64,000 nt of DNA from an uncultured virus (IMG/VR IMGVR_UViG_3300047322_000261) (IMGVR_UViG_3300047322_000261); one strand, 5' to 3'; shown: positions 20,330 to 62,748, counted from the stretch's first letter. The notes: generated from the sequence alone by a model not told the origin. Program-made: numbers and translations.

Positions 20330-20363
20330 TTTCCGTTGGTGAAACGCTGATCTATGCTAGGTT
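20330..20363 (+). promoter_or_regulatory. Conserved promoter motif, copy 1 (TTTCCGTTG-N19-TAGGTT)
   Basis: One of 7 copies with identical 19-nt spacing; 11 nt upstream of ATG 20375. Confidence 0.75.
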
Positions 20364-20374
20364 AATCTATACTT

Positions 20375-20680
20375 ATGACACCAAACACAATAACGGTGCT
20401 AATCGAGGGCGACGACACCGAAAAAGAGGCTAAGTTACGCAAGTTTTCACTGGAATACGGTGCTGGACTCTATGAAACAGAGGATGGTAGGGAGTTTTAC
20501 GTCGAACCTGCGCTAATTCAGGAGTCTAATGACGAACACAAAGCCGTTCCTATCCCGTTACAGGTAATAACACACCGAGAAGCTATGTTACAGAAGCTGA
20601 AATGGGGGCAAGAGCAGCTAGAGCGGCTAAACAAGGAAGATCAATCAGGAATTATCTTGCCAGATGCCTACAAAGCTTAA
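20375..20680 (+). CDS. Hypothetical protein
   Basis: ORF directly after the promoter motif. Confidence 0.6.
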   Translation: MTPNTITVLIEGDDTEKEAKLRKFSLEYGAGLYETEDGREFYVEPALIQESNDEHKAVPIPLQVITHREAMLQKLKWGQEQLERLNKEDQSGIILPDAYKA

Positions 20681-21553: not shown

Positions 21554-21585
21554 AGAGCGGGGTGCTTCGGCATCCCGCTCTTTTT
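21554..21585 (+). terminator. Rho-independent terminator
   Basis: AGAGCGGGGTGC-TTCG-GCATCCCGCTCT followed by a T-run; cUUCGg loop. Confidence 0.9.
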
Positions 21586-21766: not shown

Positions 21767-21845
21767 CGTGGGGTGGACAAGTCTGGTTTAAGTCGTCGGT
21801 CTCATAAGCCGAAGATCGCGGGTTCAAATCCCGCCCCCGCAACCA
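21767..21845 (+). tRNA. tRNA-Met(CAT), initiator type, with U31-G39 anticodon-stem variant
   Basis: C1xA72 mismatch, GAC/GTC D-stem, anticodon loop CTCATAA (CAT at 21803-05), GCGGG-TTCAAAT-CCCGC T-arm, encoded CCA. Confidence 0.93.
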
Positions 21846-22582: not shown

Positions 22583-22728
22583 AAACACCTTGGGAATTAG
22601 GGGTGCTAATTAAGGTAGCATCCGACATGAAAAAACAATCAATACTGAGTCCGTGGAATCCTGTTAAGGTAAACAAAGACTGGATTCCTGTAGCGGTAAT
22701 TGAATATATTTCCGTTGCCGAAGGCTGA
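22579..22728 (+). CDS. 49-aa hypothetical ORF
   Basis: ATGA overlap with the upstream stop; MKTPWELGVLIK...AEG. Confidence 0.4.
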   Translation: MKTPWELGVLIKVASDMKKQSILSPWNPVKVNKDWIPVAVIEYISVAEG

Positions 22729-22742
22729 TCGTATGTTATATT
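22709..22742 (+). promoter_or_regulatory. Conserved promoter motif, copy 3 (TTTCCGTTG-N19-TATATT)
   Basis: Same spacing; extended -10 TG. Confidence 0.75.
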
Positions 22743-22747
22743 GACTT

Positions 22748-22819
22748 GTGGCATCCGAAAAGCCGAAAGGAAATCGCGCGATAACGCCTGCGTAGGACAT
22801 GCGAAAGCTAGGATGCCAC
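22748..22819 (+). ncRNA. Candidate multi-branch structured RNA or 5' leader
   Basis: GTGGCATCC/GGATGCCAC closing stem, two GAAA-tetraloop hairpins and a GCG-ATAA-CGC arm; begins at the predicted TSS. Confidence 0.55.
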
Positions 22820-22825
22820 TCATTT

Positions 22826-22900
22826 ATGAAAACTGCTTTATTGGTCGTCTTGATAATCATTTATCTGGTCGGCCTTTACTACGTAACGAAAGGAAGCTAA
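22826..22900 (+). CDS. 24-aa single-TM peptide
   Basis: MKTALLVVLIIIYLVGLYYVTKGS. Confidence 0.5.
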   Translation: MKTALLVVLIIIYLVGLYYVTKGS

Positions 22901-22904
22901 AACA

Positions 22905-23333
22905 ATGAATATGAACGCAACAGCACAGATGCGAACGACGACACAAGTGGGGTGCGGGAAGGCTAAGAAACCTGAACACGCGGCAGGCAAGGCGCAGGAG
23001 TTAGGCGACCCAAGTGAACACGTATTCTTGTTCGACGTTTGCCAAAAGTGCGGCATTTCTGCGTTCAACCTTGATGACGACGAGACCTGCACGGTAATAA
23101 ACAACCAACACGCGGCAGACAATGCGCAATTAGCAATGGCGTTCGGCCCAAATGACGAGTGCATCCAAATCGGAGGGTTATCGTTCATGGTCAATATTTC
23201 CGCTCAACTTATAGCCGACAAAATCAACGCGAGCATCAATGCCGAGCGGGAGCGTTACCGAAAGCTAGTGGATGCTGAAAGACGCAGATGTTTCGACTTA
23301 GAACAGCAACTCGCAGCCGAGCGGGAGAAATGA
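22905..23333 (+). CDS. Hypothetical protein with C-terminal coiled coil
   Basis: AAAGGAAG RBS-like sequence upstream; LEQQLAAE tail. Confidence 0.55.
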   Translation: MNMNATAQMRTTTQVGCGKAKKPEHAAGKAQELGDPSEHVFLFDVCQKCGISAFNLDDDETCTVINNQHAADNAQLAMAFGPNDECIQIGGLSFMVNISAQLIADKINASINAERERYRKLVDAERRRCFDLEQQLAAEREK

Positions 23334-30550: not shown

Positions 30551-32369
30551 TTTGCCTCTCTGTTAACTGTGTTGTATTTCCTAGCCTTGTTGCGCTTAGC
30601 GTTAGCTCGACCGTCTATGAACGGCACACCATCCACAAACGGTTCTAGGCCGCTCTGTGCGCTATCCAGCACTAGCTTAGCCTGCCACACAGGAACGTCC
30701 AGAACGTCAGCCATAGCCTGTAGCGTTGAGTTTCGTGTTATCATAACCCCGTTGTGATTTCTTTGATTTCTTGGAGTTTATTCTCGGCTACCACCGCTCG
30801 GTGCATCCAGTATATACGAGAGGCATCTAGCTTCCGCATTGCTTCCTGTCGAATCTGCTCATCTTCGTATGTTTTGTCTTGTTTCATTTTGCTAGCTCGG
30901 TTAATCCAGTATATACGAGAGGCATCTAGCTCCAGTGAGTATGTTGTGTTTTTTTTCATTTTGCTCCTATTAGGATTTGTTTCTCTGACTGTCGTTGCTG
31001 TCTTTCGATTTCTTTGTTGTGGCGATACATCATGATTTCCTCGATGACTACTTCCGGTTTGAGGCTAACCACCGCTCGCCAGAACGTGATGTAGTTAATG
31101 TCTGGAATGACCTTTCTGAGCGTCTGGAAGGCTCCCTGTTTCGTTTCGTTGTAGTCAAGCCATAGCTTGTAGTCCAACGGTGCATTGGAAAGCCTAGAGG
31201 CTTCCTGATAGGCTTCGTAGCCCTTCCTTGCGTTCATGTAAGTTTTCCAGAACATTACCAAAGCCGCCATTTCGATCTTGTTAAGCTGTAGTCGCTTCAT
31301 CGTGTTCTCCGTGTGATCTGTGAGCGGTTCCAGTTACCTATGCCACCAGTTGAGTTGTTAAGCTGGTCTACCATTGCCGAAGCGGCACACTCATGCCAGA
31401 AGCTATGATACTTTACTCCGGTCTTAGTGAAGACCGTATAGACATAAGAACCAGTGTTGGTGATTCGCTTTTTTTCATACCATGCCCTAGGCGCACGCTC
31501 GATCTCTACCGACTTAATTACTGCGCCAGCTTCGTTCTTGCGTGGCACAAGATTAATTGTCAGATTGATTGTAAGTCTTTTTGTCATTTACTTTCCTTGG
31601 TTGAACGCTACAACCCTAGCCCTAGCTGTGGCTGACGTTGTGTTTTCTCTGTCGAGTTTATTCATGGTTGCACCGAATGTTGACCACTTGTAAGAACGGC
31701 TTACTCGGCACGTTCCACGCTGCATCCAGTTAGCCTTGCAGGTCGAAACCTTGTCACGGCCCGCTGTTCCGCTGCCTTTTCGCTGGTGGCGAGCTTTCTT
31801 GGCTCCACGAATACCGCACCCTTTGGTTGGGAATGATGGTTTGGTTGTTTTCATTGTTTATCTGTCTCCTACGTTAGCTGGCATGTTGTCACACATACCA
31901 GAGTTAATTACCAATTTGGTTATCTGTGTTCGCAAGTTATTAAGCTTGGCTTTCATAACTCTATCAACAAGGTTCTTGGCTCTGCGATAGGTTGGGACTT
32001 CCGCATAGAAGCCAGTGTTTTTGTTATACACCGTAAAGCCATGCTCAAAATCGTCTTCGTAGCCGATAATCTCATGCCCACGGTAAATTACTGCCTCATA
32101 CATTAGTCGCACTCCCCTTCCCGTTTCAGGAACGCTCTCTCCGTTCCAGTATTAACCGCATCCTGCCATGTTTGCTTGCGAGCATAGCTGCCACGCATCT
32201 GTGAGTTTTTCCAGTTTTGCCAGCGAGCGCGACGACGCTTCCAGACCCTCTGCGTTGGAGTCAGGTTGGCGTCTGTGGCGTTTTTATTGGTGAAGCCTAC
32301 TGGGAGAGCCAGCGGCAACTCCAAGAACGATCTGTGGCCTTTTAGAGTGATTGTTGGTTTGAATTTCAT
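30547..32369 (-). CDS. Run of about seven small hypothetical early ORFs (30547..30744, 30741..30959, 30956..31300, 31297..31587, 31588..31854, 31858..~32103, 32103..32369)
   Basis: Tightly coupled ORFs, many basic; no recognisable domains. Confidence 0.55.
30805..30931. repeat. 28-bp perfect direct repeat (period 99 bp) inside ORF 30741..30959
   Basis: ATCCAGTATATACGAGAGGCATCTAGCT at 30805 and 30904; encodes LDASRIYW twice. Confidence 0.9.
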
Positions 32370-33077: not shown

Positions 33078-34265
33078 CTAGCACGCAGGAGCATTGTGCC
33101 GATTGTTCAGCAACGGCATCGCTATGATTTTGCCGCTCGGCTGAGTAATTGAAGCAATGATTGGCTTCTCTCCTGCCTTTGTTTTACTAAGGTCACGAAA
33201 CTCTCTCGCCTTCGCTTCCTGTTGTTTCAGCCAGAACGCAACGTGCCTCTCTTGCTCTGTCTCTGGCGCAAACTCAAGATCACCCTCTAGCTCGGCCAGT
33301 GTTCGCGCTTCGCCAGCAGCAGCGATTTCTTCATCTGTTGGCTCGCGTTCTGAATCGTCTGCGGTGTAGCTGCCAGTAAACGCCGCGTTAAAGGCCGCGT
33401 CTGCCGCTTCGTTCTCGTCTTCATCGGTAAGAACACGTGGAGTGCCAGTTGTAATCCAGCGGTTGTTGCAGTCGTAGTAGCCCTGCGGCTCGTAGTCACG
33501 CACCTTAACCCAATCACCAACATAATCATAGTAACCGATGCTGCGATGAAGGGACGAATACACTGGGTTGGACGCTGTGCCAAAGCCGCGATAGGTTGGG
33601 CTAGCTAGGCTATTCCACATGTTACTAACAGAGCCTTGTGCGCCTTTCCAAGCACGTTTGATTGGGCCGTAGGCGTAACCTGAGTTACTATACCAAACAC
33701 CCTTATTCCACGTTCCCTTTTGCTCATTGAATAACCAGACCTTGCCGTTGACGTTCATTAAGGCGATCTTGTTATAGCCGATAGCTTCACCGACTACCTT
33801 GCCGAATCCCTCATGCCCAAACGGAACCATTTCCAGTAAAGGCTCTAGCAGCTTAGCAAACTGTTTTGAATCAGATTCGTTTTTGTCATCCTTGTGAAGT
33901 GAGCTAGGCAGTATACCATTGTGAACCAACGCATACTTGCCATTGCTAACGTCAAACGGGTGGCAGTTGTCAGCATTAACAACTCCGTGAGTAGCTATCC
34001 TGAAATGTAACAAGGCAGCATACTTTTGTAGGCCTTGATAGGCTTTCCAGAAGTCGTCGAAGCTAAAGAATCCTTTGTGAATCTCGATCTTACCATCCTT
34101 AGCGATAGCAAAACCAGCACCCTCTTTGTTGTTAGCGTAACAGTTTTGAAGGTATTTCCTTGCGATATTGACGCCTTTTGGTTTCCATACCGCGATACAA
34201 CCTAGCATGGGAAGCAACTGCCAACAGGTGCTAACCCAGTCTATGATTTGAATTAAGTGTGTCAT
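33078..34265 (-). CDS. Class II (Ntn) glutamine amidotransferase with a 22-aa N-terminal leader
   Basis: CIAVWKP...N.EGAG...HFRIATHG...NCHPF...HNG...SDS...WYSN. Confidence 0.88.
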   Translation of the reverse strand: MTHLIQIIDWVSTCWQLLPMLGCIAVWKPKGVNIARKYLQNCYANNKEGAGFAIAKDGKIEIHKGFFSFDDFWKAYQGLQKYAALLHFRIATHGVVNADNCHPFDVSNGKYALVHNGILPSSLHKDDKNESDSKQFAKLLEPLLEMVPFGHEGFGKVVGEAIGYNKIALMNVNGKVWLFNEQKGTWNKGVWYSNSGYAYGPIKRAWKGAQGSVSNMWNSLASPTYRGFGTASNPVYSSLHRSIGYYDYVGDWVKVRDYEPQGYYDCNNRWITTGTPRVLTDEDENEAADAAFNAAFTGSYTADDSEREPTDEEIAAAGEARTLAELEGDLEFAPETEQERHVAFWLKQQEAKAREFRDLSKTKAGEKPIIASITQPSGKIIAMPLLNNRHNAPAC

Positions 34266-34275
34266 GTTTTTCTTT

Positions 34276-35121
34276 CTAGTTAATTACCGCTGGATGAATG
34301 TAGTCCATATACGTTCTTCCGTGAACATCATTAAACGGTTCTTTACCATTCTCGATGATATAATCAAAGGCCTTAGCTGTGCAGGACTGCCTGTATGGTG
34401 ATGTTTGGCTAGGTGCTGAGTTAGCCTCTAGGACGTATGGATTACCGTTTGCGTCTACCATAACATCGACACCGCAGAAGTCTGCCCCGCCAACCTTAGC
34501 AGCTTTAATGGCAGCTTTGATTACCTTAATGGGCCAAAGATTCCATCGAACGTTGGCAAACTTTCCACCACGAGCAACGTTCCAAGCTACTTCATCTGGA
34601 TTAGCCGGTGTCTTGCTAGCTACCCATACTACCCGATTCTGGCATACGAACACTCGATACTCAGCTACCTTGGCAACCTTAACAGCTATGTAACCGTCGC
34701 CAAAGTTATCCAGTAACCAATGCTTACAGGCCGAAAAACTACCTACAAACAGGTTCCTTCCCTGTGAGTGAGTAGGTGGCCTAGCTATCCAGTGGTTGTT
34801 ACGATACTCATGCGGAACAGTGTCACCGCAAACTAGAGTGAATGGAACGGGAACACCAGCAGCTTGCATATCTAGCCTGCTCTGTTTTTTGTTCCCGCAC
34901 CAGTGTATAGCCTTAGCTGCGTTAACAACCTTGGCATGGATAGGAATGTTGGAAGTGCAACCCCATCTAAATACTAATGGTGTATCGTCATCGGTGGTTA
35001 CACTCTCCCAGTCACCCCTAATCCAGTTTCTAACCTGAGCTATCTGCTTTGTAGCAGCAGCTATGATTCCGTCTGCGCTTGCCTTACCAAGTGCGCGTCG
35101 TCTAAAGATAATTGCTTTCAT
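34276..35121 (-). CDS. ATP-grasp ligase (RimK-like)
   Basis: NKKQS...EYRVFV...DFCGVDV...YVLEANSAP. Confidence 0.88.
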   Translation of the reverse strand: MKAIIFRRRALGKASADGIIAAATKQIAQVRNWIRGDWESVTTDDDTPLVFRWGCTSNIPIHAKVVNAAKAIHWCGNKKQSRLDMQAAGVPVPFTLVCGDTVPHEYRNNHWIARPPTHSQGRNLFVGSFSACKHWLLDNFGDGYIAVKVAKVAEYRVFVCQNRVVWVASKTPANPDEVAWNVARGGKFANVRWNLWPIKVIKAAIKAAKVGGADFCGVDVMVDANGNPYVLEANSAPSQTSPYRQSCTAKAFDYIIENGKEPFNDVHGRTYMDYIHPAVIN

Positions 35122-36107
35122 TATTCCTCGAATGTTAGTCCAAACTCGTTCTTAGCTGAGCAGTTTTTGAACGGCTTCCATCCAACCTGCTCTGATAGGT
35201 CAGTAGCCTTACCAAACCAGCGGCACATGATGAATGACATAAGGTGCGGCCATTTGTCGCTATGCTTAACAAAGCGCATGAATCCTGCCCGACTAATAGC
35301 TTGGCTTAGCGTAACATCTTCCTGAGAGCAGAAGTCCAACAAGGCATCGACAAACTCAATGTTCTTGTAGACTGACTCTTTCTTTAGCGTTCCCTTGAAC
35401 ATGCGAAACTCAATCGTTTCCTGATTGCACAGGTTGATAGCTTCGTGTCGCTCGCTAGTCAAGGCGGCAGTCTCAGGGTCTTTCGCTTTATACTTAGTAT
35501 AGCTGTTGTCTTTGCGGCCAGACATAACATAAACGAATTTCTTGTTAGCTTGGCTGTTAATAAAGCATACTGCCTTAGCTATAATACCCTCTGTTAGAAC
35601 GTCGCGGCTAACGTGAACGTGCATACCGCAACGATCACTGTTCCACGAGATAAGACCATTGGGGCGTTTTGTCAGGAATTTCTCCCAAATGATATACTGT
35701 TTTTCTTTCAGATATGGTCTTGTTACGATCTCGATTCCGTTCTGTAGGGAACCATCACGTTTCATTATCACGGCATCACCCATGAGATCGTCAATTTCAC
35801 GAAGCTTTGCCTGAACGTTCTTCTCGGAAGGGTCTTTTACTTCGGTCTCTAGCTCGACGCCGAAATACCGCTTTCCCTTCTCGATCTTGCTAGTGTCTAC
35901 TCTTGTGCTGTATTCTGCTAGCTGTGGATTCTCGCGGAAGCATGGACGACATTGGTCGTTCCTCATGTGGTTTCGCAACATAAACTCCCCGCAGAACGGG
36001 CAGTAACGATAGCGAAGCGCGCATGAAATGCACCGCTCTGTGTCTAGGTATCTGTTAGCGTCGTCGCCCTCAGACACTAGGACTACATCGCACTCAATAC
36101 AATTCAT
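35121..36107 (-). CDS. Putative amidoligase (COOH-NH2 ligase type) with N-terminal Cys-rich region
   Basis: FGVELE...KRDGSL..GIEIVT...CGMHVHVS...AINL...TIEFRMFKGT. Confidence 0.88.
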   Translation of the reverse strand: MNCIECDVVLVSEGDDANRYLDTERCISCALRYRYCPFCGEFMLRNHMRNDQCRPCFRENPQLAEYSTRVDTSKIEKGKRYFGVELETEVKDPSEKNVQAKLREIDDLMGDAVIMKRDGSLQNGIEIVTRPYLKEKQYIIWEKFLTKRPNGLISWNSDRCGMHVHVSRDVLTEGIIAKAVCFINSQANKKFVYVMSGRKDNSYTKYKAKDPETAALTSERHEAINLCNQETIEFRMFKGTLKKESVYKNIEFVDALLDFCSQEDVTLSQAISRAGFMRFVKHSDKWPHLMSFIMCRWFGKATDLSEQVGWKPFKNCSAKNEFGLTFEE

Positions 36108-36644
36108 TGTTTCCTTTCTTTAGTGGTTGACCGTTATTATCAGCGGATGTTGTTAGTTTGTGTATCATTACCAATAGCGACTCGGTGTCCATAGAACCCG
36201 TAGCCAGATTGGTTTGAATCTTGATGTATTTCTCGGCTTCCCTAAGAGCGAAGCGCAAGTCTCGGATGTATGCTATTCGCTGAATGGCTAGCTGAGAGCT
36301 AATATGGTCTCGTGTAGCCACCCTAGCTCTTTCTTGCCTGATGCTATATAAGAACAGATGGAACAGAACCAGAGTTGCTATTACGCCAGCCGTAAGCAAA
36401 ATTTCAAATGGTGTCATTGTGCGTCTTCCCATTGCCAAGGATGAAGGTGGATTGTGGGACGATGATCTGTGTCACCGTCTTCAAATTCATCCAAAGCGGT
36501 TTTGATGTTTCGCATTGTGCCAGTGAACCCACGAAATTCGATTGGCGAACCTTCGTCATCGAACCCAATACCATTACTGGCCCAATCCTTCTCGTCGAGA
36601 ACCACCTTATGAACGGTGATTCGCTTTGTGAATTGCAACGCCAT
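36094..36644 (-). CDS. Two hypothetical ORFs (36094..36417 with N-terminal TM; 36414..36644)
   Basis: Coupled ORFs; hydrophobic ILLTAGVIATLVLFHLFLY. Confidence 0.55.
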
Positions 36645-36790
36645 TAGAAATCACTCGCGTCTTCAAATGACGGAGCCTCGTTTTTGTTTACTGGCGTTCT
36701 GTAAACGTAGTTAGCAATACCTACCGTTAATACAAACCAAGCAGGATACGCAAACCATACAGTATCCATTAATGCCAAGACATGTTCCAT
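36644..36790 (-). CDS. 48-aa membrane peptide, first gene after promoter copy 4 (not in ORF track)
   Basis: ACGGAGAAAACA-ATG; MEHVLALMDTVWFAYPAWFVLTVGIANYVYR...; TAATG coupling to the next gene. Confidence 0.6.
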   Translation of the reverse strand: MEHVLALMDTVWFAYPAWFVLTVGIANYVYRTPVNKNEAPSFEDASDF

Positions 36791-36841
36791 TGTTTTCTCC
36801 GTTGATTGTTTATGCGGCAGACGTAATTCTCCCGCACTACA

Positions 36842-38607: not shown

Positions 38608-41397
38608 TTCGTTTTTGTTACTTTTATACCTGCCCTGCGGCGAGCCGCATAAGTGCGCCTAGTATCAACCACAACTCTGCGTTGAAGCTTCCCGTTCCTA
38701 ACACGATAATCAGTCTTATGAACCATGCAGCACCCGCAGCACATTTCGTGGTTTCCTCGCCAATCCCAATCTTCCCATTCTCCATCGTATACCTGCTCAA
38801 ATCTTTTCATAGAAAGAGCTAGCTAGTGAGGGCTAGCTAGCTCGATTATGTTAGATATCCACTTCCTCTGGTGTTGGGTCTTTGGTTTCCAACTTGGTCT
38901 TAAGCTGAAGCACAAGAGCGTCCCTAGCTGCTGTCTTGCTCTGTCCGTAGGCCATTAGGCAATCCGATTTATCTGGAAGCAAAGACCATGCTTTCCAAGA
39001 ATAGCCCGTTCCAGAGATTCCGCGACCGTCTGCGTTGCTCTGATATGTGTAGTTTACTGTTACTTTCATTTTACCTTTCTGTTTGTTGTTACTTGTTAAA
39101 TATCTCCGTTTTCGTTTAGTTTGTGTATCTCGTATGGCATAACATACTGGATAAAAAATACCTGCCAAGCTAACTCCCTAGCTCTCTGCCAAGCTGGACT
39201 AACTTTGTCTCCTGTTACTTCGGAATAGATTTCATCAGCCGTAGTCCATCGTGGATTCTTTTTCCATTTGGCTACCATGTCGTTGTAGTAGAAGTAACAA
39301 CGTTCTCCTGCCGTTCTAGGGCATCTTTTTGTTGCCAATTCCCTTCTGTCTTTTAGTGATATGAATGGCATTAGTTATCCTTGTTGCTAATCTTGAGCCT
39401 ATCGTAGACTTGGAATGAGTTATCCCTAGAAGACAGGTTGAAGTGCAAAACGTCGTTCCTTGGCCCACCTGTTGAAATGGTATACTCAACCATTCCTTCT
39501 CCTAGGTCTTTCTTGGCCATTATCCTCATGTCGTCCATGTTATACCTGTATTCTCCGCAAGCTACCATTAGGCATGTTAGCAGTATTAGTGTTGCTTTCA
39601 ATGTATATTAGCCTTTCTTGTTTTAGTGAATGGGTCTTTCTCTGCCAGTAAGCCGTATTTGCGGTAGCTAACAGATCGCTTAGACATTGGGTTAGCGTTC
39701 TTACTTCTAGTGCCCCTAAGCGACGCCCAACTAGAGCCTTTGTTCTTCCACAGTTTTTCGGTTTTGTATGCCCTGCCTGTCATGTTTCAATTCCTTAAAG
39801 TATTTCCTGCCTAGCTCAAGAGTAGTTACTAACTCTCCGGTGCTAGGAACCCGATCAAAGGTTGGGTCAAACCTGATTATTGCTACTCCGTTATCAGCGG
39901 TTACATCAAAGAACCGCATGTTAAATGGTCTATTCATTGGTTGTTTCTCCGAGCGATACATGCGCCTAGCCTCGTCGTATTCTTCTTCTATGATTTCTAG
40001 GTCTTTACCAGTCACTCCATCTTTGAGAGCATTAACGAACATTTTATCACAATGCTCCATCCAAGCTTCCGTGTCACTCATTCTCCGCAGCACCCTTCTA
40101 TTACTCGTTCTCTACACATAGCTGACACGCATATAGCATGACCGTTTCTTACTATAACAGGCCTGCTACACACCGGACATACATCTAGGACAGCTTGGCG
40201 CGGCAAGCTGGTAGCTACCGCGCACTCTTTAGCTGCCTCTAGGATTATGTCTAGCGCGTCATCTACTGGTGGTAGATCGTGGTTCATTAGAAATCACTTC
40301 CTGCGCCTGCTCCACCAAAATCCCCGCCACCGCTATCAAACGAGCTATCTGGTGTTGGGTCTGGTGTGGTATCGAAGCTAGGACTGTCATCTGAGCTAGA
40401 CAACATAGAACCTATGCCGATAGCTGCCCCTAGCAAGCCAGAGCTAGAATCCTCGCGATCTGTTTCATCGGACTCCTGTGTGTCACCGAGATAGAATCGC
40501 TCAGCTTCGTCGAACGATCTACATACCCTGCTACTGCCATACTTAACGCATGTTACGTTTTCTTCGGCATGGTTAAGAAACCATACCCTTGCTTCCTCTA
40601 CTGTATTTACCGTATCCATTACTTATCCTTTCTTGTTATCTTTTTTGCTGCCGCAACTGCAAGATGAGTTATTTCTACTACAACCATCCCTGCGGCAAAA
40701 TATAGCCAGCACAAGCTAGAGTCACTCATTGATTCTCTCTATTGAGGCATCTGCCCATGCGCTGATTAACTTACGCCTGTCGGTTGGTGTTAGTGGTTTT
40801 GTTGTAACATGCCATTCGCCGTTCTCTTGCCTGACTTGATACCCAACCCCTTGCTTGTTACAGACCTTGGAGAATTTTACGAAGTTATCGTTCGTAAAAA
40901 AATGCAGGTTAACTGGTCGTTCTTCGCTCATGTTACTTCCTTTAGAAATATTGGCCTGACTTCAAATAACCTAGAGTCTCTGTAAGCTTCTAGCCTTTTC
41001 TTGGCAGCGCGAGAGAAACCAAACACCTGCGCCTTTTGTAAGTCATCTGTCATGTGTCCACCAGACCCTATGTATTGATTAACTGGGACTGGTGGGCCTT
41101 TCTCAATCCATTTTGATACATCGTAGTCATAATATGATAAATCCAGTTTTGCTTTCTGGAATACTACGGACAGTATTGGCTTATAGCTCATGAGCCACGC
41201 TCCCACGTTTCGGGAGTTTCGTTGTCATGGCTGTGATCTTTCCAATCAACGGCCAAGGTTGTCCTAGGTGGCGTGTCTGATTGCTTAACCTTATGGTATA
41301 GCAACAACACTCTTGGGTCTGGCGACCTGCTAGCCAATATGAGTTGCTCTAATACCGACTGCTCGGCTTCGTTTATCCTAATTACCTTGCTGGTCAT
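38604..41397 (-). CDS. Run of about 11 small hypothetical ORFs (38604..38810, 38851..~39069, 39096..39371, 39371..39601 lipoprotein-like, 39598..39783, 39731..~40078, 40078..40287, 40287..40619, 40722..40931, 40928..41206, 41188..41397)
   Basis: Coupled ORFs; 39096..39371 has MPFI...PYE..K..ENGDI; 40287..40619 ends in DSGGGDFGGAGAG. Confidence 0.55.
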
Positions 41398-42155
41398 TTA
41401 TTCCTTCCTAGGTATGCTTTGTAAGCTATGTTAGGTATCATGTAATACTTTCCACAGTCGCTATCCAGACAGTGCATCTGGTGCTTAGTGGTTCCCGTTC
41501 TACCTACCATTAATCGGATATGTCCAACATGCTCGCTGCCGCAACGCTGGCAAGACCAACGTTCTCCACCATCCTGCACTCCGGCATGGGTATGCAATGG
41601 GCAGTATAGGCTTAGCTTACTATGCACTGGCTTAAGTAGGTGCGCGTCATGCTTGTTATACCTACGCATCTTTTCTACCGCAGCTTTTGAATGACGGTCA
41701 TTGCCCTTAGTGGCATCCTTCCATAAGTCATACTCTGTCCTGATCTTGGTTCCTATACCTAAGTAGTGGGCAAGATAGTCGAGTTTATTAGAGTTGAGGA
41801 AGAAGTAATTAGAAGACCAAGCTTTCGTGTCTACGGACTTCCAGTTAGGGACTACAATTCCATGTTTTAATGCCCTACCCCTAACCCAAGGAATATCAAA
41901 TCCGTCGCCATAGTGGGCTACGATTTCGTCTGCCTCGTTCATTTCGCCAGTTAGGTCTTTTACTAACTGTTCGTCTTCTCGGTTCTTATCCCATGCAAGA
42001 TCGTGGATTTTGTTCTTGCCTTCCCAGTTAAACGCTGCCGTAATGATGCGACGTTCCTCTAGGATTTGTTCGTAAGAGATATTGACCTTGTATCCGGCAG
42101 ACCAGAAGAAACCTACATTTGGGCAGGTTTCAATGTCTAAGAATAGTCGCTTCAT
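41394..42155 (-). CDS. RNase H-fold (YprB/DnaQ-like) exonuclease with C-terminal Zn ribbon
   Basis: LFLDIET, HYGDGFD, SNKLDYLA, YNKHD, CQRCGS. Confidence 0.85.
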   Translation of the reverse strand: MKRLFLDIETCPNVGFFWSAGYKVNISYEQILEERRIITAAFNWEGKNKIHDLAWDKNREDEQLVKDLTGEMNEADEIVAHYGDGFDIPWVRGRALKHGIVVPNWKSVDTKAWSSNYFFLNSNKLDYLAHYLGIGTKIRTEYDLWKDATKGNDRHSKAAVEKMRRYNKHDAHLLKPVHSKLSLYCPLHTHAGVQDGGERWSCQRCGSEHVGHIRLMVGRTGTTKHQMHCLDSDCGKYYMIPNIAYKAYLGRNK

Positions 42156-42158
42156 TTG

Positions 42159-42498
42159 CTAGTTACTGGCTTTACATTGGCCTTGATCTTTGGCCGTGAC
42201 GGAAACAGAAGCGTCCCTAATGGTCGCTGGTGTCGTTGGTTTGCAAAGGCATAACTTGTTGCCCTTGGTCGCTTTGTTCTTTTCTTCATAGTATTGGTGC
42301 AGCCATAAGACCGCTATAAATAGTATTGATGCTAGAATACATCCACATATTGGGCCGAAAACGGAAATCAATAAACATGATACCGTCATGGTTAGTAAAA
42401 CTTTAGCGTGAATCATTCTTGCCTATGTAGTATAATGCAATGACAACTATAGACACCACTAAGACCAATCCACAGCAAGCTGCCATAGTCCAGAACAT
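42159..42498 (-). CDS. Two small membrane proteins (42159..42416; 42403..42498, 31 aa)
   Basis: Hydrophobic segments; the second is MFWTMAACCGLVLVVSIVVIALYYIGKNDSR. Confidence 0.45.
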
Positions 42499-42549
42499 AT
42501 CTACATCTGTCGTTCGCTCTGTAATTATTTGAACCGTTTGTGCTATCAT

Positions 42550-42644
42550 AAAAAGCTGCGCCGACTAGGTGAAAACAATGAAACTCCTAATCGGCGCGAG
42601 GGGCGTGGAGAGAGTTGGAGAAGATTGAAATACTCTCTGACCAC
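42550..42644 (-). ncRNA. Candidate two-hairpin small RNA with related 16-nt loops and U-tail
   Basis: Hairpins at 42605-42644 and 42558-42597; the U-G wobble works only on the minus strand; starts at the predicted TSS of promoter copy 5. Confidence 0.65.
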
Positions 42645-42649
42645 AACTA

Positions 42650-42683
42650 AACCTAGCACATGATCCTAGATCGACAACGGAAA
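42650..42683 (-). promoter_or_regulatory. Conserved promoter motif, copy 5 (TTTCCGTTG-N19-TAGGTT)
   Basis: Identical spacing; extended TG. Confidence 0.8.
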
Positions 42684-43618
42684 TTATTTAGGAACCTTCA
42701 ACCCCGATAGGCCTTTGCGCCTTCTGCCCATTGCCTTGAATCGCAACGCCAAAGATTTTCGTGCTGGCGTGCAAGTTTTCTTGGTCATGGGGGTGCAATA
42801 GCCTTCGTGCTTAGGGTTAACCGCTCCCGCTATCCAGTTTTTCTTACTCATAACTTCCATCCTCGTTGTAATACTTAATAGGCCTGCCCCTAGTGCCAGC
42901 TTCCCATCGCTTAGCACCTATGTATTTACGCTGGTTAAGTCGTCTATCTATTGTGCAGGATTCGCAAAGAACGCGCCCACGCTGGCGTTTATTCTTACAG
43001 CGTGCGCAAATACCATTACGGTAGCGTTGCTTCCGATACGCCTTCTGCCTGTTTTTGCGGGACTGGTCGTTCATTCTCTCGTTTAGGTTGTGGGATAGGC
43101 GCACCACGATCACTCCATCCGGCTGCTCCACTACCTATCTCTGGTGGTAAGTCTTTAATCGGTGCTGGCTGCTCAACGTAAGGAACGTCCTGACCGTTCA
43201 CCTTCTTGATCTTCATGGGTGGCAACGGTTGAGTATTGATGCGTCCGGGTCGAGTCATGTTAACTCCAAAGTTTTGTTCTGTTGGGTCTGCCTCAATCCA
43301 GTCAGGCGAGCTACCACCAGCAGATACCGCTCGTCCACCACCAAATTGCGGTTGAACCTTTGGTAGATTATTGGGTAAGTGTGTTAGTGGGTCAATGTCT
43401 GGTTCTGTAGCTGCCGGAATAGGGTCTACCGCTACATGTGGCTCTGGTTCTGGTGCGCTAAGCTGCCTAAGTGTTTCCTCGGCTATTAAGACTTTCTCTA
43501 CTGCCTTCATGGGAATAGAGCCTGTCTTAAGCCAGCGAGCTACCGTAGCTTCCTTTGTGTCGAAAAACGAAGGAGCTTTGTCTCCTAGTTTCTTAATAAA
43601 CTCTCTGATGTTAGTCAT
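42684..43618 (-). CDS. Three hypothetical ORFs (42684..~42851; 42844..~43076 with CxxC...CxxC; 43016..43618 with N-terminal HTH-like segment)
   Basis: KKNWIAGAV motif; CARC...CESC; ATVARWLKTGSIP. Confidence 0.5.
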
Positions 43619-44901
43619 TATCGTAATACTCCTGCTCCTGTTAATAGATCACTTAATGCCTTACCGTCTGGAATCCGTAACAGGTCTTTAGGTGAAGGTA
43701 TGGTTGGCGCAGGTGGTGGCGTTAGGTCGCCTGCTTGCGACGTGCTACCCGCTGCCTTGATTTTGTTAACGTATTCCTGCAAGCTAGTTACCTGAGCCTG
43801 TAGGTCTTTATTGACAGCCGCTAATACATCCGCTTGTGTAGCCTTAACTACAATGCGACCTGATACCTTCGGGTCTTGTGAAGTCTTGATGTATTCGGCA
43901 AACTTTGCTTCGGCCTGCTTAATCCGAGCGTTGTGGTTGTCTGCTACCAAGCGTTCCTCTGCTGTCATGGTTGGTAACACCGCGATAGGTTTAGCTATGT
44001 CTCCTAGCTCAGCTAGAGCCTCGTCACGTCCGGCGTTAAACTCGGTTGTAAATTTCTCTACCTTGGCTTTGTAGCGTTCCTCGCCTTGGCTATGGAAGGC
44101 CTGTAATTCTTTGTTTGCTTTATCCTGAGTGTTAAGAGCGTTGGTTAGCTCGCCTAATGCTCGGTTCCTGTGGAACATCGGAGTCCTAGCGAGTAACTCG
44201 TCGTTAATCCATTGCTGTGCTGTTAGGCCTTTGTCTTCGTCAACGACTTGGTTAGACCTAGACATAGCTACAATGCCACCGTGGTCTTCGATGAACTTAA
44301 CGTGTTCATCCTTAAGTCCAGCTTCTCGCAGGATGTTAATGATGTTACCTTCAGCTTCCCTAACTGGCTGGATGTAGTTCTTCTGAAACTCAGGGTCTAG
44401 CTTAAGGTCTACTTCTCGACGAAACCCTCTTAGCTCGTCCAGTTCTTTCTTAACGTCTTCTGGAATAGACGGTGTGTTAGCCTTGGCTTCATACTCAGCT
44501 AGTTTTGTGTTAGCTTCTTGGAATTTAATCTCGGCTTCTGTTCTAGCTTTGTGTTCCTCTCGGCTAATGCGCCTTAGCTCGTCCATCCCCTTGATAACAT
44601 TAGGGTGCGTGCGATCACCGGCCTTAATACCTTCAAGGGTCTGCTCAAACGGGTCTACCGGAGCAGCGGGGGCTGCTGGCGCGGCAGGATCAGTTGTAGG
44701 GGCTACTGGTGTTGGTGTTGGTGCTGTAACAACTGGTGCTACCGCTGGAACCTCTACCTTGTCGAATAACTCAGACAATGCCTTGAAGTTATCGGCTCCG
44801 TGTTGTGAATCCAAGTTATCGCCAGATGTAGCTGGCGGAGTAACATCTTGTGATGTTATCGGCTGGATAGTTGGGGTTGCGGGTGTGGTTGTGTCTGCCA
44901 T
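43618..44901 (-). CDS. Putative capsid scaffolding protein
   Basis: Pro/Ala/Thr-rich acidic N-terminus, long coiled coil, downstream of the portal-like gene. Confidence 0.55.
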   Translation of the reverse strand: MADTTTPATPTIQPITSQDVTPPATSGDNLDSQHGADNFKALSELFDKVEVPAVAPVVTAPTPTPVAPTTDPAAPAAPAAPVDPFEQTLEGIKAGDRTHPNVIKGMDELRRISREEHKARTEAEIKFQEANTKLAEYEAKANTPSIPEDVKKELDELRGFRREVDLKLDPEFQKNYIQPVREAEGNIINILREAGLKDEHVKFIEDHGGIVAMSRSNQVVDEDKGLTAQQWINDELLARTPMFHRNRALGELTNALNTQDKANKELQAFHSQGEERYKAKVEKFTTEFNAGRDEALAELGDIAKPIAVLPTMTAEERLVADNHNARIKQAEAKFAEYIKTSQDPKVSGRIVVKATQADVLAAVNKDLQAQVTSLQEYVNKIKAAGSTSQAGDLTPPPAPTIPSPKDLLRIPDGKALSDLLTGAGVLR

Positions 44902-44902
44902 A

Positions 44903-45387
44903 TTATGTGTTCTTTGATTGTTCTACCGTATAAAGGCCTTTATAGTCACACCATGCGTTTACAGCCTGTTCGTCGGTCATCATCATAGGGTTTTGAACCC
45001 TGTATTGAGAGTAACATTGCCTAACTTCTGTTTCAGGGTGGTCTCGGTAAGGAGCGGCCCAGCTTTGAGCTAGGACTTCGCGCTGTTTGCGATCTTTTCG
45101 CCATGCTAGAAATTCTTGAAATAGGTTCATTAGTCTCCCTCTCTCGTTAGGTCGAGAGCTTCATTGTCTCTGTATTCAGCAGGAGCGGAATCAGCTAAGG
45201 CTAGGAACTTGTTAAACAAATTCTCCGCACCTTGTTTTTCTACTGCCTGAATCCATGCTGATTCTTTAGTTAGTGCCTTTACTTTAGGTATAAGGTTTCG
45301 TAGTTCTTCTACGAGTTTTCGTCCTGACGGTTGACCTAGAATGTTTCTAAGCCAAGCTTCGTCTGCTGGTTCCCAGTTAACTTGCAT
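44903..45387 (-). CDS. Two small proteins between portal and scaffold (44903..45130, 45130..45387)
   Basis: The second (L....G.KL...L) resembles small head-module proteins that follow portal genes. Confidence 0.5.
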
Positions 45388-54641: not shown

Positions 54642-54930
54642 TCAGTATTCTACGTTGGTGACAGGTTTTTGACAAGTCATCCATAGTGGTTAGTGCGTTG
54701 TCGTCTATCTCTTTAAGCACCCACATGGAATGATTTTTGTCTCCTAGGATCGCGCTATCGCTTACTCCCCACACTCGTAGTTCTTCAACGGCTAGTGCTT
54801 CCTTTAGCATGTATCGGTGCTGACTGTATGGAGAAATCCACCACAGTCCGTCGTGCTTCCATCCTTTGTCTTGTAGCTTGCCTTTTCCGTTAACTCGTTT
54901 GGGCATCTGGTATCCTAGGTTGCTCGACAA
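54595..54930 (-). CDS. Hypothetical protein
   Basis: ORF between terS-like and terL. Confidence 0.5.
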   Translation of the reverse strand: MSSNLGYQMPKRVNGKGKLQDKGWKHDGLWWISPYSQHRYMLKEALAVEELRVWGVSDSAILGDKNHSMWVLKEIDDNALTTMDDLSKTCHQRRILSDRASRSNLKGEGTD

Positions 54931-55393
54931 CTTCTGCCTCGATTACCTTACCTTTGCTCCTATTAGCTAAGTTAGCCATAGCCTCTATAACACCTTCTGC
55001 TATACCTTTACCTAGGGCTTCTGCCTGACCACGCTCGGCTCTTGGTAGAGTATGGAATCCGAATAATTTCGCTTGGTCTGATAGTATTTTAGTTACCCTG
55101 TCAGTGGCGTATAGTTGGTCATCAACCTCTCTCGTATTATCCAGCGCAACAGGAACCCATTTGTTAAGCAATGCCTCGTAAATCTCATTCTGATTTACAA
55201 TAAGTTCCTTGTCTTTGCCTTCAAGTGCCTTTATGCGATGTTCGGTTAGAAACTTAGCGTCTTGGTGTGCCGTGAAGACGGTAATACCTAGCTCTCTTGC
55301 GATCTGTCGATAGGTCTTGCGCTCGACAACTCTAAGCTGCCATACCTTCTCTCGTCGCTCTATTGTAGCTTGCTTACTGCCTGCTGTTCTCAT
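54890..55393 (-). CDS. Terminase small subunit-like HTH protein
   Basis: RR..V..LR....TYRQIARELGI...TA..D; C-terminal VIEAEVV; upstream of terL. Confidence 0.6.
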   Translation of the reverse strand: MRTAGSKQATIERREKVWQLRVVERKTYRQIARELGITVFTAHQDAKFLTEHRIKALEGKDKELIVNQNEIYEALLNKWVPVALDNTREVDDQLYATDRVTKILSDQAKLFGFHTLPRAERGQAEALGKGIAEGVIEAMANLANRSKGKVIEAEVVEQPRIPDAQTS

Positions 55394-60300: not shown

Positions 60301-60659
60301 CCTTGCAGGTCGTCTTGAATATACTTACTGTGAGACAGTAGAGACCTTCTAGCCTCTAGCATACACCTACCAGTTTCGTAGTTATAGATCGTCTGGTGGG
60401 CATCCTCTACTCGTTTTCTAAGGTTATCCATGTCAGAAATAAAATGCTCTGACGTTCTGGCAAAATACTCGGCCTTAGCCACAGAATCACCAGACAAAAG
60501 GTAGGGATTCATGTGTTTAGCTAGTATGCTTTTACGATCATCAGAGGCAAACTCTAGTATCTGTTTAGCCTCGCCAGCTAAGTCAGAAAGGTCTTTAACC
60601 ATTACCATTGCTTCGTTTAATTCCTTGGCGATTTCAACAGATTGTGTATGGTCACTCAC
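60297..60659 (-). CDS. Helical protein, possibly recombination mediator (UvsY-like)
   Basis: SVAKAE..A...EARRSLLS pattern; GTG start directly after promoter copy 6. Confidence 0.45.
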   Translation of the reverse strand: MSDHTQSVEIAKELNEAMVMVKDLSDLAGEAKQILEFASDDRKSILAKHMNPYLLSGDSVAKAEYFARTSEHFISDMDNLRKRVEDAHQTIYNYETGRCMLEARRSLLSHSKYIQDDLQG

Positions 60660-60664
60660 TACTT

Positions 60665-60698
60665 AGTATCTCACACTCTTAGGTTTGGACAACGGAAA
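60665..60698 (-). promoter_or_regulatory. Conserved promoter motif, copy 6 (TTTCCGTTG-N19-GATACT)
   Basis: Identical spacing. Confidence 0.7.
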
Positions 60699-62083: not shown

Positions 62084-62675
62084 GTAGGAAGTCGTAGAAT
62101 TTAGCGGCCAGCTTAACAATCTTTTCTGGACTTCCTTCTCCTGAAGCGGCAGACAGATCAACGGCAGCTTTAAGGGCTACCTGTTTCTCGATTGACTCAC
62201 GTTTGGTTTCCTCAGAAACGAACCTAGTGTTCTTAACCACCATCTCTGACGGTTTGGGTGTTAATTGCTCGGCTAACTCGTCTGTCTCGGTAGCGTTGAA
62301 CACTTCCTTAACATCTTCCTCTGTAACAGGCCCACCTGTAACTTGGTCGATCTTAACGTGCTTCTCTACCTTAAGCTGTTTCTTTCCCTTGTATTCATCA
62401 ACGGTGATTCCGCTAATCCTGCCCTTACTGTCTTCCTGAGCTAACAAGATAACATCTTCACCCTCAAGGTTGCGAAGGTCTAGGTTAAATCGGTTCCAAA
62501 AGGTAGCCCGAATCTCACCATCGAAATCCTTAAGGATAGCAGCCTGCATCTTCCAAGGCCTTCCGTTAGCTTCACCTTCCCCCGGTTCAAACCCTTTCTT
62601 TACCTGAACTGCCAGTTTTAGGACTGGCGAACCCTTAGCTAGCTCATCAATATCCGCGATTGTAACTTGATTCAT
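62070..62675 (-). CDS. OB-fold single-stranded DNA-binding protein (RPA-like)
   Basis: ILKD.DGEIRATFW...VDEYKGKKQL; C-terminal SI..QVALKAAV. Confidence 0.7.
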   Translation of the reverse strand: MNQVTIADIDELAKGSPVLKLAVQVKKGFEPGEGEANGRPWKMQAAILKDFDGEIRATFWNRFNLDLRNLEGEDVILLAQEDSKGRISGITVDEYKGKKQLKVEKHVKIDQVTGGPVTEEDVKEVFNATETDELAEQLTPKPSEMVVKNTRFVSEETKRESIEKQVALKAAVDLSAASGEGSPEKIVKLAAKFYDFLHGSA

Positions 62676-62684
62676 ATATGAATT

Positions 62685-62718
62685 AATATAGCACAGGTTT
62701 AACTAGCCACAACGGAAA
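62685..62718 (-). promoter_or_regulatory. Conserved promoter motif, copy 7 (TTTCCGTTG-N19-TATATT)
   Basis: Heads the replication operon; back-to-back with a + strand promoter. Confidence 0.8.
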
Positions 62719-62719
62719 T

Positions 62720-62748
62720 TTGACACACCCCTTCCAGTAACATAATAT
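62720..62748 (+). promoter_or_regulatory. Sigma70-like promoter TTGACA-N17-TAATAT for the capsid transcript
   Basis: Consensus -35, divergent from copy 7. Confidence 0.65.

Follow-up and report, generated by a model that had tools for sequence, protein, structure and literature searches.

A promoter-proximal two-hairpin leader of an uncultured soil phage is a candidate regulatory RNA with a loop complementary to translation start sites

The window analyzed here is a stretch of 64,000 nucleotides (nt) from the uncultured virus IMGVR_UViG_3300047322_000261, and all coordinates are those of the whole window. On its minus strand, at 42644-42558, lie two hairpins that begin at the predicted +1 of a recurring promoter. 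The hairpin region is non-coding. Promoter and hairpins are conserved in a metagenome locus, L058, which is the sole informative relative, so that conservation here means a comparison of two sequences. The second hairpin is the better conserved of the two, and its loop (loop 2) is the complement of a favored translation start context. We propose that the element is a leader-borne antisense RNA, loop 2 of which would pair with start regions of messenger RNAs; we put the probability of this reading at about 0.4. Judged by its sequence, the element is a candidate regulatory RNA, new and unclassified, of a known general kind.

Structure of the Two-Hairpin Element

The two hairpins are as follows.

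42605..42644, minus strand: hairpin 1, with 4 + 7 base pairs (bp) and a 16-nt loop; the 5' extremity of the predicted transcript.
42558..42597, minus strand: hairpin 2, a 12-bp G+C-rich stem (42597-42586 / 42569-42558) with one G-U pair; the conserved core.

Hairpin 1 consists of GUGG (42644-42641), a 2-nt bulge, AGAGAGU (42638-42632), the 16-nt loop 1 (AUUUCAAUCUUCUCCA, 42631-42616), ACUCUCU (42615-42609) and CCAC (42608-42605). A linker of 7 nt separates it from hairpin 2, which sits at about +48 to +87 and displays loop 2 (AGUUUCAUUGUUUUCA, 42585-42570), likewise of 16 nt. Following hairpin 2 are, in order, AGC, UUUUU (42554-42550) and AUG (42549). A preliminary description of this DNA had placed two strong stems with 16-nt loops at the predicted +1; its statements about the sequence are correct, with the strand being the minus strand.

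The predicted fold is a stable one. The 106-nt stretch has a minimum free energy of -34.3 kcal/mol (z -5.26), and none of 200 shuffles is as stable. Folded alone, hairpin 2 reaches -21.6 kcal/mol (z -6.1) and hairpin 1 reaches -12.7 kcal/mol (z -3.3). When a 300-nt context is folded, both hairpins persist and both loops are at least 90% unpaired. The plus-strand version of hairpin 2 is weaker by 3 kcal/mol than the minus-strand version because the G-U pair becomes A-C.

A search with model R1 found no second copy in the window; hairpin 2 is single-copy there. Exact and degenerate DNA patterns of hairpins 1 and 2 gave 0 matches in viral contigs. The 22-nt loop pattern gave four matches in genome contigs, none with flanking stems, and at least one of these (L064) looks like an ordinary gene start read in antisense.

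Conservation of Hairpin 2

L058 carries the promoter and both hairpins upstream of its exonuclease gene. The two exonuclease genes, which set the scale for the divergence, share 84% of their amino acids (aa), 78% of their DNA positions and 62% of their third codon positions. Of the L058 promoter, TTTCCGTTGT and TGCTA are kept, and only 6 of the 15 spacer positions are identical. The TGTGG of the +1 region lies at an equal distance from the -10 box in both phages. The L058 leader is also predicted to fold stably (z -4.2; 0 of 200 shuffles as stable).

The two hairpins have fared differently. Hairpin 1 of L058 is weaker (-10.1 kcal/mol, z -1.5); it keeps the GUGG/CCAC base and a GAGA/UCUC core, with one U-A pair changed to C-G, and its loop has diverged, leaving 8 nt open, which hold CCCUC. 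Hairpin 2 is identical at 38 of 40 nt, comprising 24 of 24 stem positions and 14 of 16 loop positions. The probability of at least 38 identities in 40 is 1.4e-6 at the third-position identity of 62%, and 0.004 at the whole-gene identity of 78%.

The relatedness of the two loops had earlier been read as a possible repeated protein-binding motif, or sponge. The comparison does not support that reading: the UUUCA part is partly paired in hairpin 1 of L058, and loop 1 has diverged. We dropped the protein sponge on the partial pairing of the shared UUUCA(A/U)U, and because no known loop motif was recognized in it (e.g., no GGA).

The Promoter and Its Class

42650..42685, minus strand: promoter of the class AATTTCCGTTGT-N14-GTGCTAGGTT, recognized by the recurring motif and by conservation of its boxes in L058.

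The promoter at the element reads AATTTCCGTTGTCGATCTAGGATCATGTGCTAGGTT and is of the sigma-70 type. Its -35-like element is TTGTCG (42677-42672) and its -10 box is TAGGTT (42655-42650), with TGTG as a "minus 16" element. Transcription is predicted to begin at G 42644 or G 42642, and the GUGG of hairpin 1 begins 6-8 bases past the -10 box. The 32-nt promoter pattern has exactly two matches in the window, 42654-42685 and 62689-62720, both on the minus strand, where 0.07 are expected. Relaxing the pattern gives nine matches versus 1.64 expected, and 0 of 100 shuffles reach nine. Five of the nine we take to front genes in the right orientation (20331+, 22710+, 42654-, 60669- and 62689-); the other four are regarded as chance. 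A further copy of the class, read by eye, precedes the gene at 36644-36790 (TTCCGTTGC...TCTAAGTTT, ~36873-36840). A generic sigma-70 scan showed no enrichment in the region, with six promoters found versus 6.7 expected.

Thus, the own promoter that a free-standing small RNA (sRNA) gene should have is present at the consensus level, through recurrence of the motif and conservation of the boxes in L058. The earlier suggestion of an RNA of the gene-sense strand, made from a conserved promoter, is borne out to that extent. The promoter is real as a motif; transcription itself we infer.

Other members of the class have leaders worth describing. At the 22710+ promoter (window 22710-22910), a long GUGGCAUCC...GGAUGCCAC stem (GUGG...CCAC) starts at the +1 and is followed by UCAUUUAUG, which opens a hydrophobic open reading frame (ORF) of 22 codons without a Shine-Dalgarno (SD) sequence. 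The stop codon of this ORF overlaps the ATG of the gene 22905-23333. The design of this leader is the same as that at the two-hairpin element. At three class promoters, namely 20331-20380 (+), 60659-60697 (-) and 62675-62720 (-), a start codon lies 0-5 nt past the predicted +1. The start contexts at these promoters (20331, 60697 and 62717) are ACTTATG, GTG and ATATG, respectively, which suggests that their first genes have leaderless or near-leaderless mRNAs.

Complementarity of Loop 2 to Start Regions

Start regions were taken from an approximate list of 108 window genes, the starts of which are uncurated. The best predicted partner of loop 2 is as follows.

36784..36797, minus strand: GAAAACAAUGGAAC, at the start of gene 36644-36790, the first gene behind another copy of the class promoter.

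Loop 2 and this start form 14 contiguous pairs, as the preliminary description had reported, with an energy of -18.3 kcal/mol. None of 500 composition-matched mononucleotide shuffles reaches this energy. The matches that had been listed at the starts of 31854, 36107 and 22905 were found again, with contiguous runs of 11, 12 and 11, respectively. Across the 108 starts, 12 have at least 10 contiguous pairs with loop 2, where the shuffle mean is 3.3 (P 0.01), and 11 lie at or below -10 kcal/mol, where the shuffle mean is 3.7 (P 0.018). When all 15,982 windows of the sense transcriptome are ranked for pairing with loop 2, the start of 36644-36790 again comes first, and three of the top five sites are start regions. 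When the costs of opening are charged, the top interaction has a net energy of -16.3 kcal/mol, and the others range from -7.9 to -10.5.

The loop also resembles the complement of a start site in general. AAACAATG occurs eight times in the window, five of them at gene starts. Scored with a position matrix made from 80 ATG starts, the complement of loop 2 receives 10.2 bits, a score higher than that of 64% of the real starts; of 1942 other ATGs, only 25 reach it. The complement of the L058 loop 2 receives 10.7 bits. Within 5.3 kb of L058, which do not extend to the region homologous to the top target, the best loop 2 site is once more a start region, at a modest -11.9 kcal/mol. Loop 2 is, at the sequence level, a bona fide anti-start-site sequence.

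The top predicted target opens an operon at 33078-36790 (-). Behind its class promoter come three small ORFs, followed by amidoligase-like, ATP-grasp/S6-glutaminyl-transferase-like and glutamine amidotransferase (GATase)-like proteins, as identified by PHROG matches. The operon may be a peptide- or nucleotide-modifying cassette.

Leader or Free-Standing RNA

The segment 3' of hairpin 2 contains the following features.

42550..42557, minus strand: 8-nt spacer AGCUUUUU between hairpin 2 and an ATG; the "U-run" of the preliminary description.
42403..42549, minus strand: ORF for a small hydrophobic (membrane) protein of 48 aa, starting 8 nt after hairpin 2, without a Shine-Dalgarno sequence.
42159..42416, minus strand: second small membrane ORF, a tandem paralogue; its N-terminal ~42 aa are orthologous to the 44-aa ORF of L058 in DNA and protein alignments.
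42152..42289, minus strand: basic 45-aa ORF (MKKRTKRPRATSYAFANQRHQRP...), the last member of the conserved module before the exonuclease gene.

The element was initially taken for a free-standing sRNA of ~95 nt ending at the U-run, an idea that the 3' end does not favor. As an intrinsic terminator, hairpin 2 has an adequate stem (12 bp, -21.6 kcal/mol). Its loop, at 16 nt, is not the short one (~3-8 nt) of such terminators, and in place of a conserved U-tract directly at the stem there is AGC and then U5. That is, the U-run begins 3 nt past the stem and abuts the start codon. In L058, the sequence after hairpin 2 is AUCACUUUAUG, with no U-run; the spacer at the same place, AUCACUUU, keeps the 8-nt length and UUUAUG and lacks the U5 run. 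Hairpin 2 is absent from the output of the terminator scan, which does find the canonical terminator at 21554-21581 (a 4-nt loop, with the U-run directly at the stem).

Where an sRNA gene would have its 3' end, a conserved ORF begins 8 nt past hairpin 2, the hairpins themselves being non-coding. The first codons of the 48-aa ORF align with those of the L058 ORF 945-1079 (44 aa), and both ORFs start equally far past hairpin 2. Because the U-run is not conserved and the 8-nt distance from the stem to the AUG of an orthologous ORF is, the hairpins are taken as the leader at the 5' end of an operon transcript. Partial termination in the window phage, or processing, could nevertheless yield a short RNA.

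Further downstream, the distance from hairpin 2 to the ORF at 42159-42416 is ~120 nt longer in the window than in L058. The basic 45-aa ORF is 66% identical to L058 1076-1228, with DNA that is 89% identical over 64 nt. Neither the 48-aa ORF nor the basic ORF has a Pfam or PHROGs match.

Coding Potential of the Hairpin Region

On the antisense strand, the frame that begins with an ATG in loop 2 runs for 16 codons in the window and for 74 in L058. This frame is not conserved because a 1-nt indel lies between the hairpins. On the sense strand, ORFs of 32-37 codons span the hairpins in both phages, in a common frame over hairpin 2 and in different frames over hairpin 1. The ATG of the L058 sense ORF is only 3 nt past the -10 box. 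Over hairpin 1, codon positions 1, 2 and 3 carry 4, 5 and 5 substitutions, respectively, and 12 of the 13 third positions over hairpin 2 are identical. The frame differences, along with the lack of a third-position bias, indicate a constraint on RNA or DNA rather than on protein. Frames and codon positions together show the hairpin region to be non-coding.

Proposed Mechanism

The proposal is as follows. The non-coding, promoter-proximal two-hairpin RNA would form the 5' end of a transcript running into two or three tiny genes and then into the exonuclease and replication genes. Hairpin 2 would be the functional core, its open loop (UUUCAUUGUUUUCA) being the complement of the favored start context, i.e., an A-rich spacer, AUG and AAA. 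Loop 2 would pair with phage (or host) mRNA starts that carry AAACAAUGRAA, and the first candidate target would be the first gene of the amidoligase/GATase operon, whose promoter is of the same class. Such pairing would keep the 30S subunit from binding. The active RNA may remain within the leader, come from partial termination at the weak U-run or be produced by processing. Release of a short RNA is inferred, as are pairing in vivo and any effect on translation. Antisense masking is in our judgment the best single mechanism, because it explains both the conservation of hairpin 2 amid drift and the presence of a start-site-complement loop on the transcribed strand.

A broader version of this proposal is that the element is a generic "anti-start-site" RNA. 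Its loop would mimic, in complement (anti-spacer, anti-AUG, anti-second codon), the site read by the ribosome and would mask or titrate phage and host mRNAs having the optimal AAACAAUGAAA context, with the anti-SD-like loop adjoining. The element would then be part of an incoherent feed-forward timer of the amidoligase/GATase operon, a notion prompted by the same promoter class driving both the element and the operon of the best target. We consider this broader version unlikely.

Several observations weigh against an antisense role, and they are gathered here. No conserved terminator that would release a small RNA is found. Among 1500 random native sense-strand 16-mers, 84 (5.6%) pair with at least one start region at -18.3 kcal/mol or better, and 34% of native 16-mers have at least 11 starts at or below -10 kcal/mol. 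Native 16-mers reach -18.3 mostly because G+C-rich words pair strongly; thus, the pairing of loop 2 is exceptional for its composition and not in absolute energy. Unless the stem opens, a loop of 16 nt can accommodate a 14-bp helix only under steric strain. The conservation of loop 2 taken alone is weak, the probability of 14 identities in 16 being 0.29 at 78% identity and 0.026 at 62%. There is no covariation, the comparison being of two sequences only, with hairpin 2 stems identical in both. Finally, loop 1 pairs with starts no better than its shuffles do (longest run 11, P 0.18; minimum -13.1 kcal/mol, P 0.45). It has 28 starts at or below -8 kcal/mol (P 0.03), P ranging from 0.03 to 0.48 depending on the measure, and it shows no start-region enrichment across the sense transcriptome. 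The anti-SD character that had been ascribed to loop 1 is therefore not statistically distinguishable from chance. The shuffled-loop control named in the preliminary description thus divides the two loops: loop 2 beats 500 of 500 composition-matched shuffles, and loop 1 does not beat its own.

Alternative Explanations

The element might be a purely cis-acting structured leader, which we regard as possible though doubtful. Hairpin 1 would shield the mRNA 5' end, and hairpin 2 would be a protein operator (nut/boxB-like or translational) or a weak attenuator, setting the flow into the small-protein and replication genes. A candidate binder is the conserved arginine/lysine-rich protein of 45-51 aa encoded ~270 nt downstream; that it binds RNA is pure conjecture, and it matches no family. 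A cis-acting leader accords well with the 8-nt stem-to-AUG distance and the UUUAUG kept in L058 with an orthologous ORF behind, and with the absence of the U5 run from the relative, which makes read-through the rule there. It also accords with the 22710(+) promoter, which shows the same GUGG...CCAC stem, UCAUUUAUG and a 22-aa hydrophobic SD-less ORF, and with a module (promoter, hairpins, membrane ORF, basic ORF) that is kept whole beside an upstream gene that differs. It leaves unexplained the likeness of the loop to a high-scoring start-site complement. Moreover, the best partner of loop 2 within 300 nt downstream is no better than shuffles in either phage (P 0.73 in the window, P 0.44 in L058), and hairpin 1 is barely above shuffles in L058. 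A plainer account, which we find quite unlikely, is that the hairpins are ordinary punctuation, i.e., a leaky terminator or an RNase processing site for upstream transcripts, and that the loop's likeness and conservation reflect chance and a short divergence time. There is indeed no terminator between the upstream ORF and the promoter, so upstream transcripts would enter the hairpins, and the figures for native 16-mers (5.6% pairing equally well with some start) and for loop conservation alone (P 0.29 at gene-average identity) lend themselves to such an account. It has to contend with the drift of adjoining non-coding positions (promoter spacer 6 of 15, loop 1 changed) beside a hairpin 2 kept at 38 of 40, with the dissimilarity of hairpin 2 to the canonical terminator 21554-21581, and with the failure of all 500 composition-matched shuffles to match the observed pairing.

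A function at the level of the DNA or of the plus strand would make the element an inverted-repeat site for a regulator or replication protein, or the plus-strand start site (AGGUGAAAACAAUGAAA) of a tiny antisense ORF; we judge this very improbable. The plus strand does offer a textbook SD-spacer-AUG arrangement with an extended -10-like TGTGCTATCAT just upstream, and the same 22-nt pattern occurs at four unrelated bacterial/archaeal sites, at least one being the antisense of a gene start. The antisense ORF, however, is of 16 aa in the window versus 74 aa in L058 owing to the indel frameshift, the -10-like box is not kept in L058, the G-U pair weakens the plus-strand hairpin, and all genes from ~24.9 to 62.7 kb are on the minus strand, as is the element. 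For a DNA site, the location of the element in front of replication genes is suggestive; an operator would be unusual if it began at +47 of a promoter and had 12-bp arms around a 16-bp spacer. Least probable in our estimation is a leaderless or near-leaderless peptide of 32-37 aa read through both hairpins, with the C-terminal half RRLG(V/L)SLFSPSRR and a stop overlapping the next ATG (UUAUGA), so that it would be coupled to the SD-less membrane ORF. Both phages have the same frame open across hairpin 2, the TGA in the window overlaps the following ATG, and start codons lie 0-5 nt past the +1 at the class promoters 20331, 60697 and 62717. Yet the two phages read the N-terminal half in different frames, which leaves no conserved protein, and the L058 ATG, so close to the -10 box, is probably upstream of the transcript start. 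The third positions over hairpin 2, 12 of 13 identical versus 62% expected, point to constraint at the RNA level, and the substitutions in hairpin 1 have no codon-position bias.

Comparison with Known Systems

Regulatory RNAs of virulent uncultured phages are, to our knowledge, almost unexplored. A conserved hairpin that carries the complement of a start context and sits behind a class promoter could time phage gene expression at the RNA level, and as a candidate for this it is compact and testable. If the antisense proposal is true, it supplies a design rule, a loop mirroring the consensus start site, that can be searched for in other viral genomes. If the element is only a cis leader, it is an unusual arrangement found twice in the genome: a stable stem, 6-8 nt, and a UUUAUG that opens SD-less mini membrane-protein genes.

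Like the proposed RNA, the c4 RNA of P1/P7 (ImmI) is a phage RNA that is short and structured and derives from the leader of its own operon. It blocks translation by pairing of exposed single-stranded segments with a ribosome-binding region. Loop 2 would provide such a segment, being exposed and complementary to a phage ribosome-binding region. Regulator and target share a promoter in P1; here, they share a promoter class. In contrast to c4, where two short segments act on one target ~100 nt away in the same transcript, loop 2 alone is credible here, and its best predicted target is 5.7 kb away with its own promoter.

In RNAIII of S. aureus and in Gram-positive sRNAs with UCCC loops, hairpin loops rather than linear seeds present the antisense to SD/start regions, as is suggested for loop 2. 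The pyrimidine-rich loops of RNAIII have a parallel in loop 1, which has CUCC in the window and CCCUC in L058. The differences are several. Loop 2 would target the spacer, AUG and second codon and not the Shine-Dalgarno sequence; at 16 nt, both loops are unusually large; the element is carried by a phage, within a leader; and loop 1 pairs no better than chance.

Lambda nut (boxB) and HK022 put are promoter-proximal hairpins that reprogram RNA polymerase. The points of likeness are one or two hairpins directly 3' of an early/middle promoter, a conserved loop, a long operon and a small arginine-rich protein nearby. Hairpin 2 is such a promoter-proximal hairpin, with a loop conserved at 14 of 16 positions in L058. 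Unlike here, the boxB loop has 5 nt and the put loops are small; moreover, neither a boxA-like element nor an N homologue was identified.

A search of Rfam at the gathering score found no family in the region; three sub-threshold matches (E <= 10, 42450-42750, both strands) include no C4, a family that also gives no match at the gathering score anywhere in the window. The best of the three is to CyVA-1 (RF02965), a candidate structured RNA of unknown function, the RNAs of which average 78 nt (Weinberg et al. 2017, PMC5737381). It has an outer G+C stem around a hairpin with a 16-nt U-rich loop, the consensus of which, gGUUUUaCCGUUuugu, aligns with AGUUUCAUUGUUUUCA. The element scores 21.3 bits, below the gathering score of 41.4 (E 0.014-0.02 in a 200-300-nt search), and a 37-position segment of the 77-position model is wholly missing. 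On account of the score and the missing segment, membership was rejected, and the match is treated as chance or, at most, a very remote resemblance.

Genomic Context

The window derives from an uncultured soil phage. Its DNA is identical in one rhizosphere run, possibly its source, and is present as fragments in one soil run, with no variation. Pfam and PHROGs identify, among others, a primase/helicase, an exonuclease subunit, the amidoligase/GATase cassette and a 3099-aa protein. Deposited phages include no close relative: a megablast of 41000-45000 against phage records gave no match, nor did tblastn with the 427-aa neighbor protein. With the primase/helicase, tblastn gave only actinophage and other matches of at most 35% identity, so the host cannot be deduced from them. 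Protein-guided scans brought up no relatives, whether made with the 427-aa protein, with an 85-aa ORF or with the alignment of the basic ORF.

Immediately upstream of the promoter is the following feature.

42684-42851, minus strand: 55-aa ORF (MSKKNWIAGAVNPKHEGYCTPMTKKTCTPARK...), the stop codon of which overlaps the 5' end of the promoter.

No Pfam or PHROG entry matches this ORF, whose product is a member of a widespread family of small phage proteins (52 viral loci, 55-85% identity). The hairpins are found in none of the 52 viral relatives, and blastn of the hairpin region against 57 loci returned only 12-14-nt chance matches. In L058, the upstream neighbor is different, namely an endonuclease VII gene and a 47-aa ORF. 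Since this neighbor is not conserved, the conserved block starts at the promoter, and since the endonuclease VII gene of L058 occupies the same slot, the position of the 55-aa ORF is a variable cargo slot upstream of the promoter. The closest viral contig (L001), the exonuclease of which is 65% identical at the aa level, is without the block: the ORF in front stops 5 nt short of the exonuclease gene, no promoter motif precedes that gene, and model R1 has no match in the 47.7-kb record. The upstream 228-aa ORF of L001 has no detectable relation to the 200-aa ORF of the window.

Also upstream, at 42844-43131 (-), is a very basic ORF with two CxxC pairs, zinc-ribbon-like, which overlaps the 3' end of the 200-aa gene. 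It is conserved at L058 20-310 with a DNA identity of 74% and has no Pfam/PHROG match.

Elsewhere in the window, the 3099-aa ORF (9963-19262, +) matches only DUF7178 (PF23802), phrog_839 and phrog_3842, and no solved structure by sequence; conceivably it is a giant virion protein. A tRNA-Met gene (anticodon CAT) is at 21767-21845 (+), with the canonical intrinsic terminator 21554-21581 just upstream of it. The intergenic gap at 38814-38845 holds a near-perfect 12-bp palindrome, rich in GCTAGC (GAGCTAGCTAG...CTAGCTAGCTC); CTAG-rich words are frequent across the whole window. A 167-aa ORF at 54890-55393 (-) matches phrog_645 (annotated "Rnase E", E 1.7e-11), and its Pfam matches to sigma-70 region 4 are weak and sub-threshold only; it may be a small DNA- or RNA-binding regulator. 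Among very small genes at 30796-30965 (-/+) is a 37-nt direct repeat, 95% identical (30796, 30895), and in the same segment blocks of ...TTTTTTCAT are repeated 72 nt apart. These repeats look like a recent local duplication.

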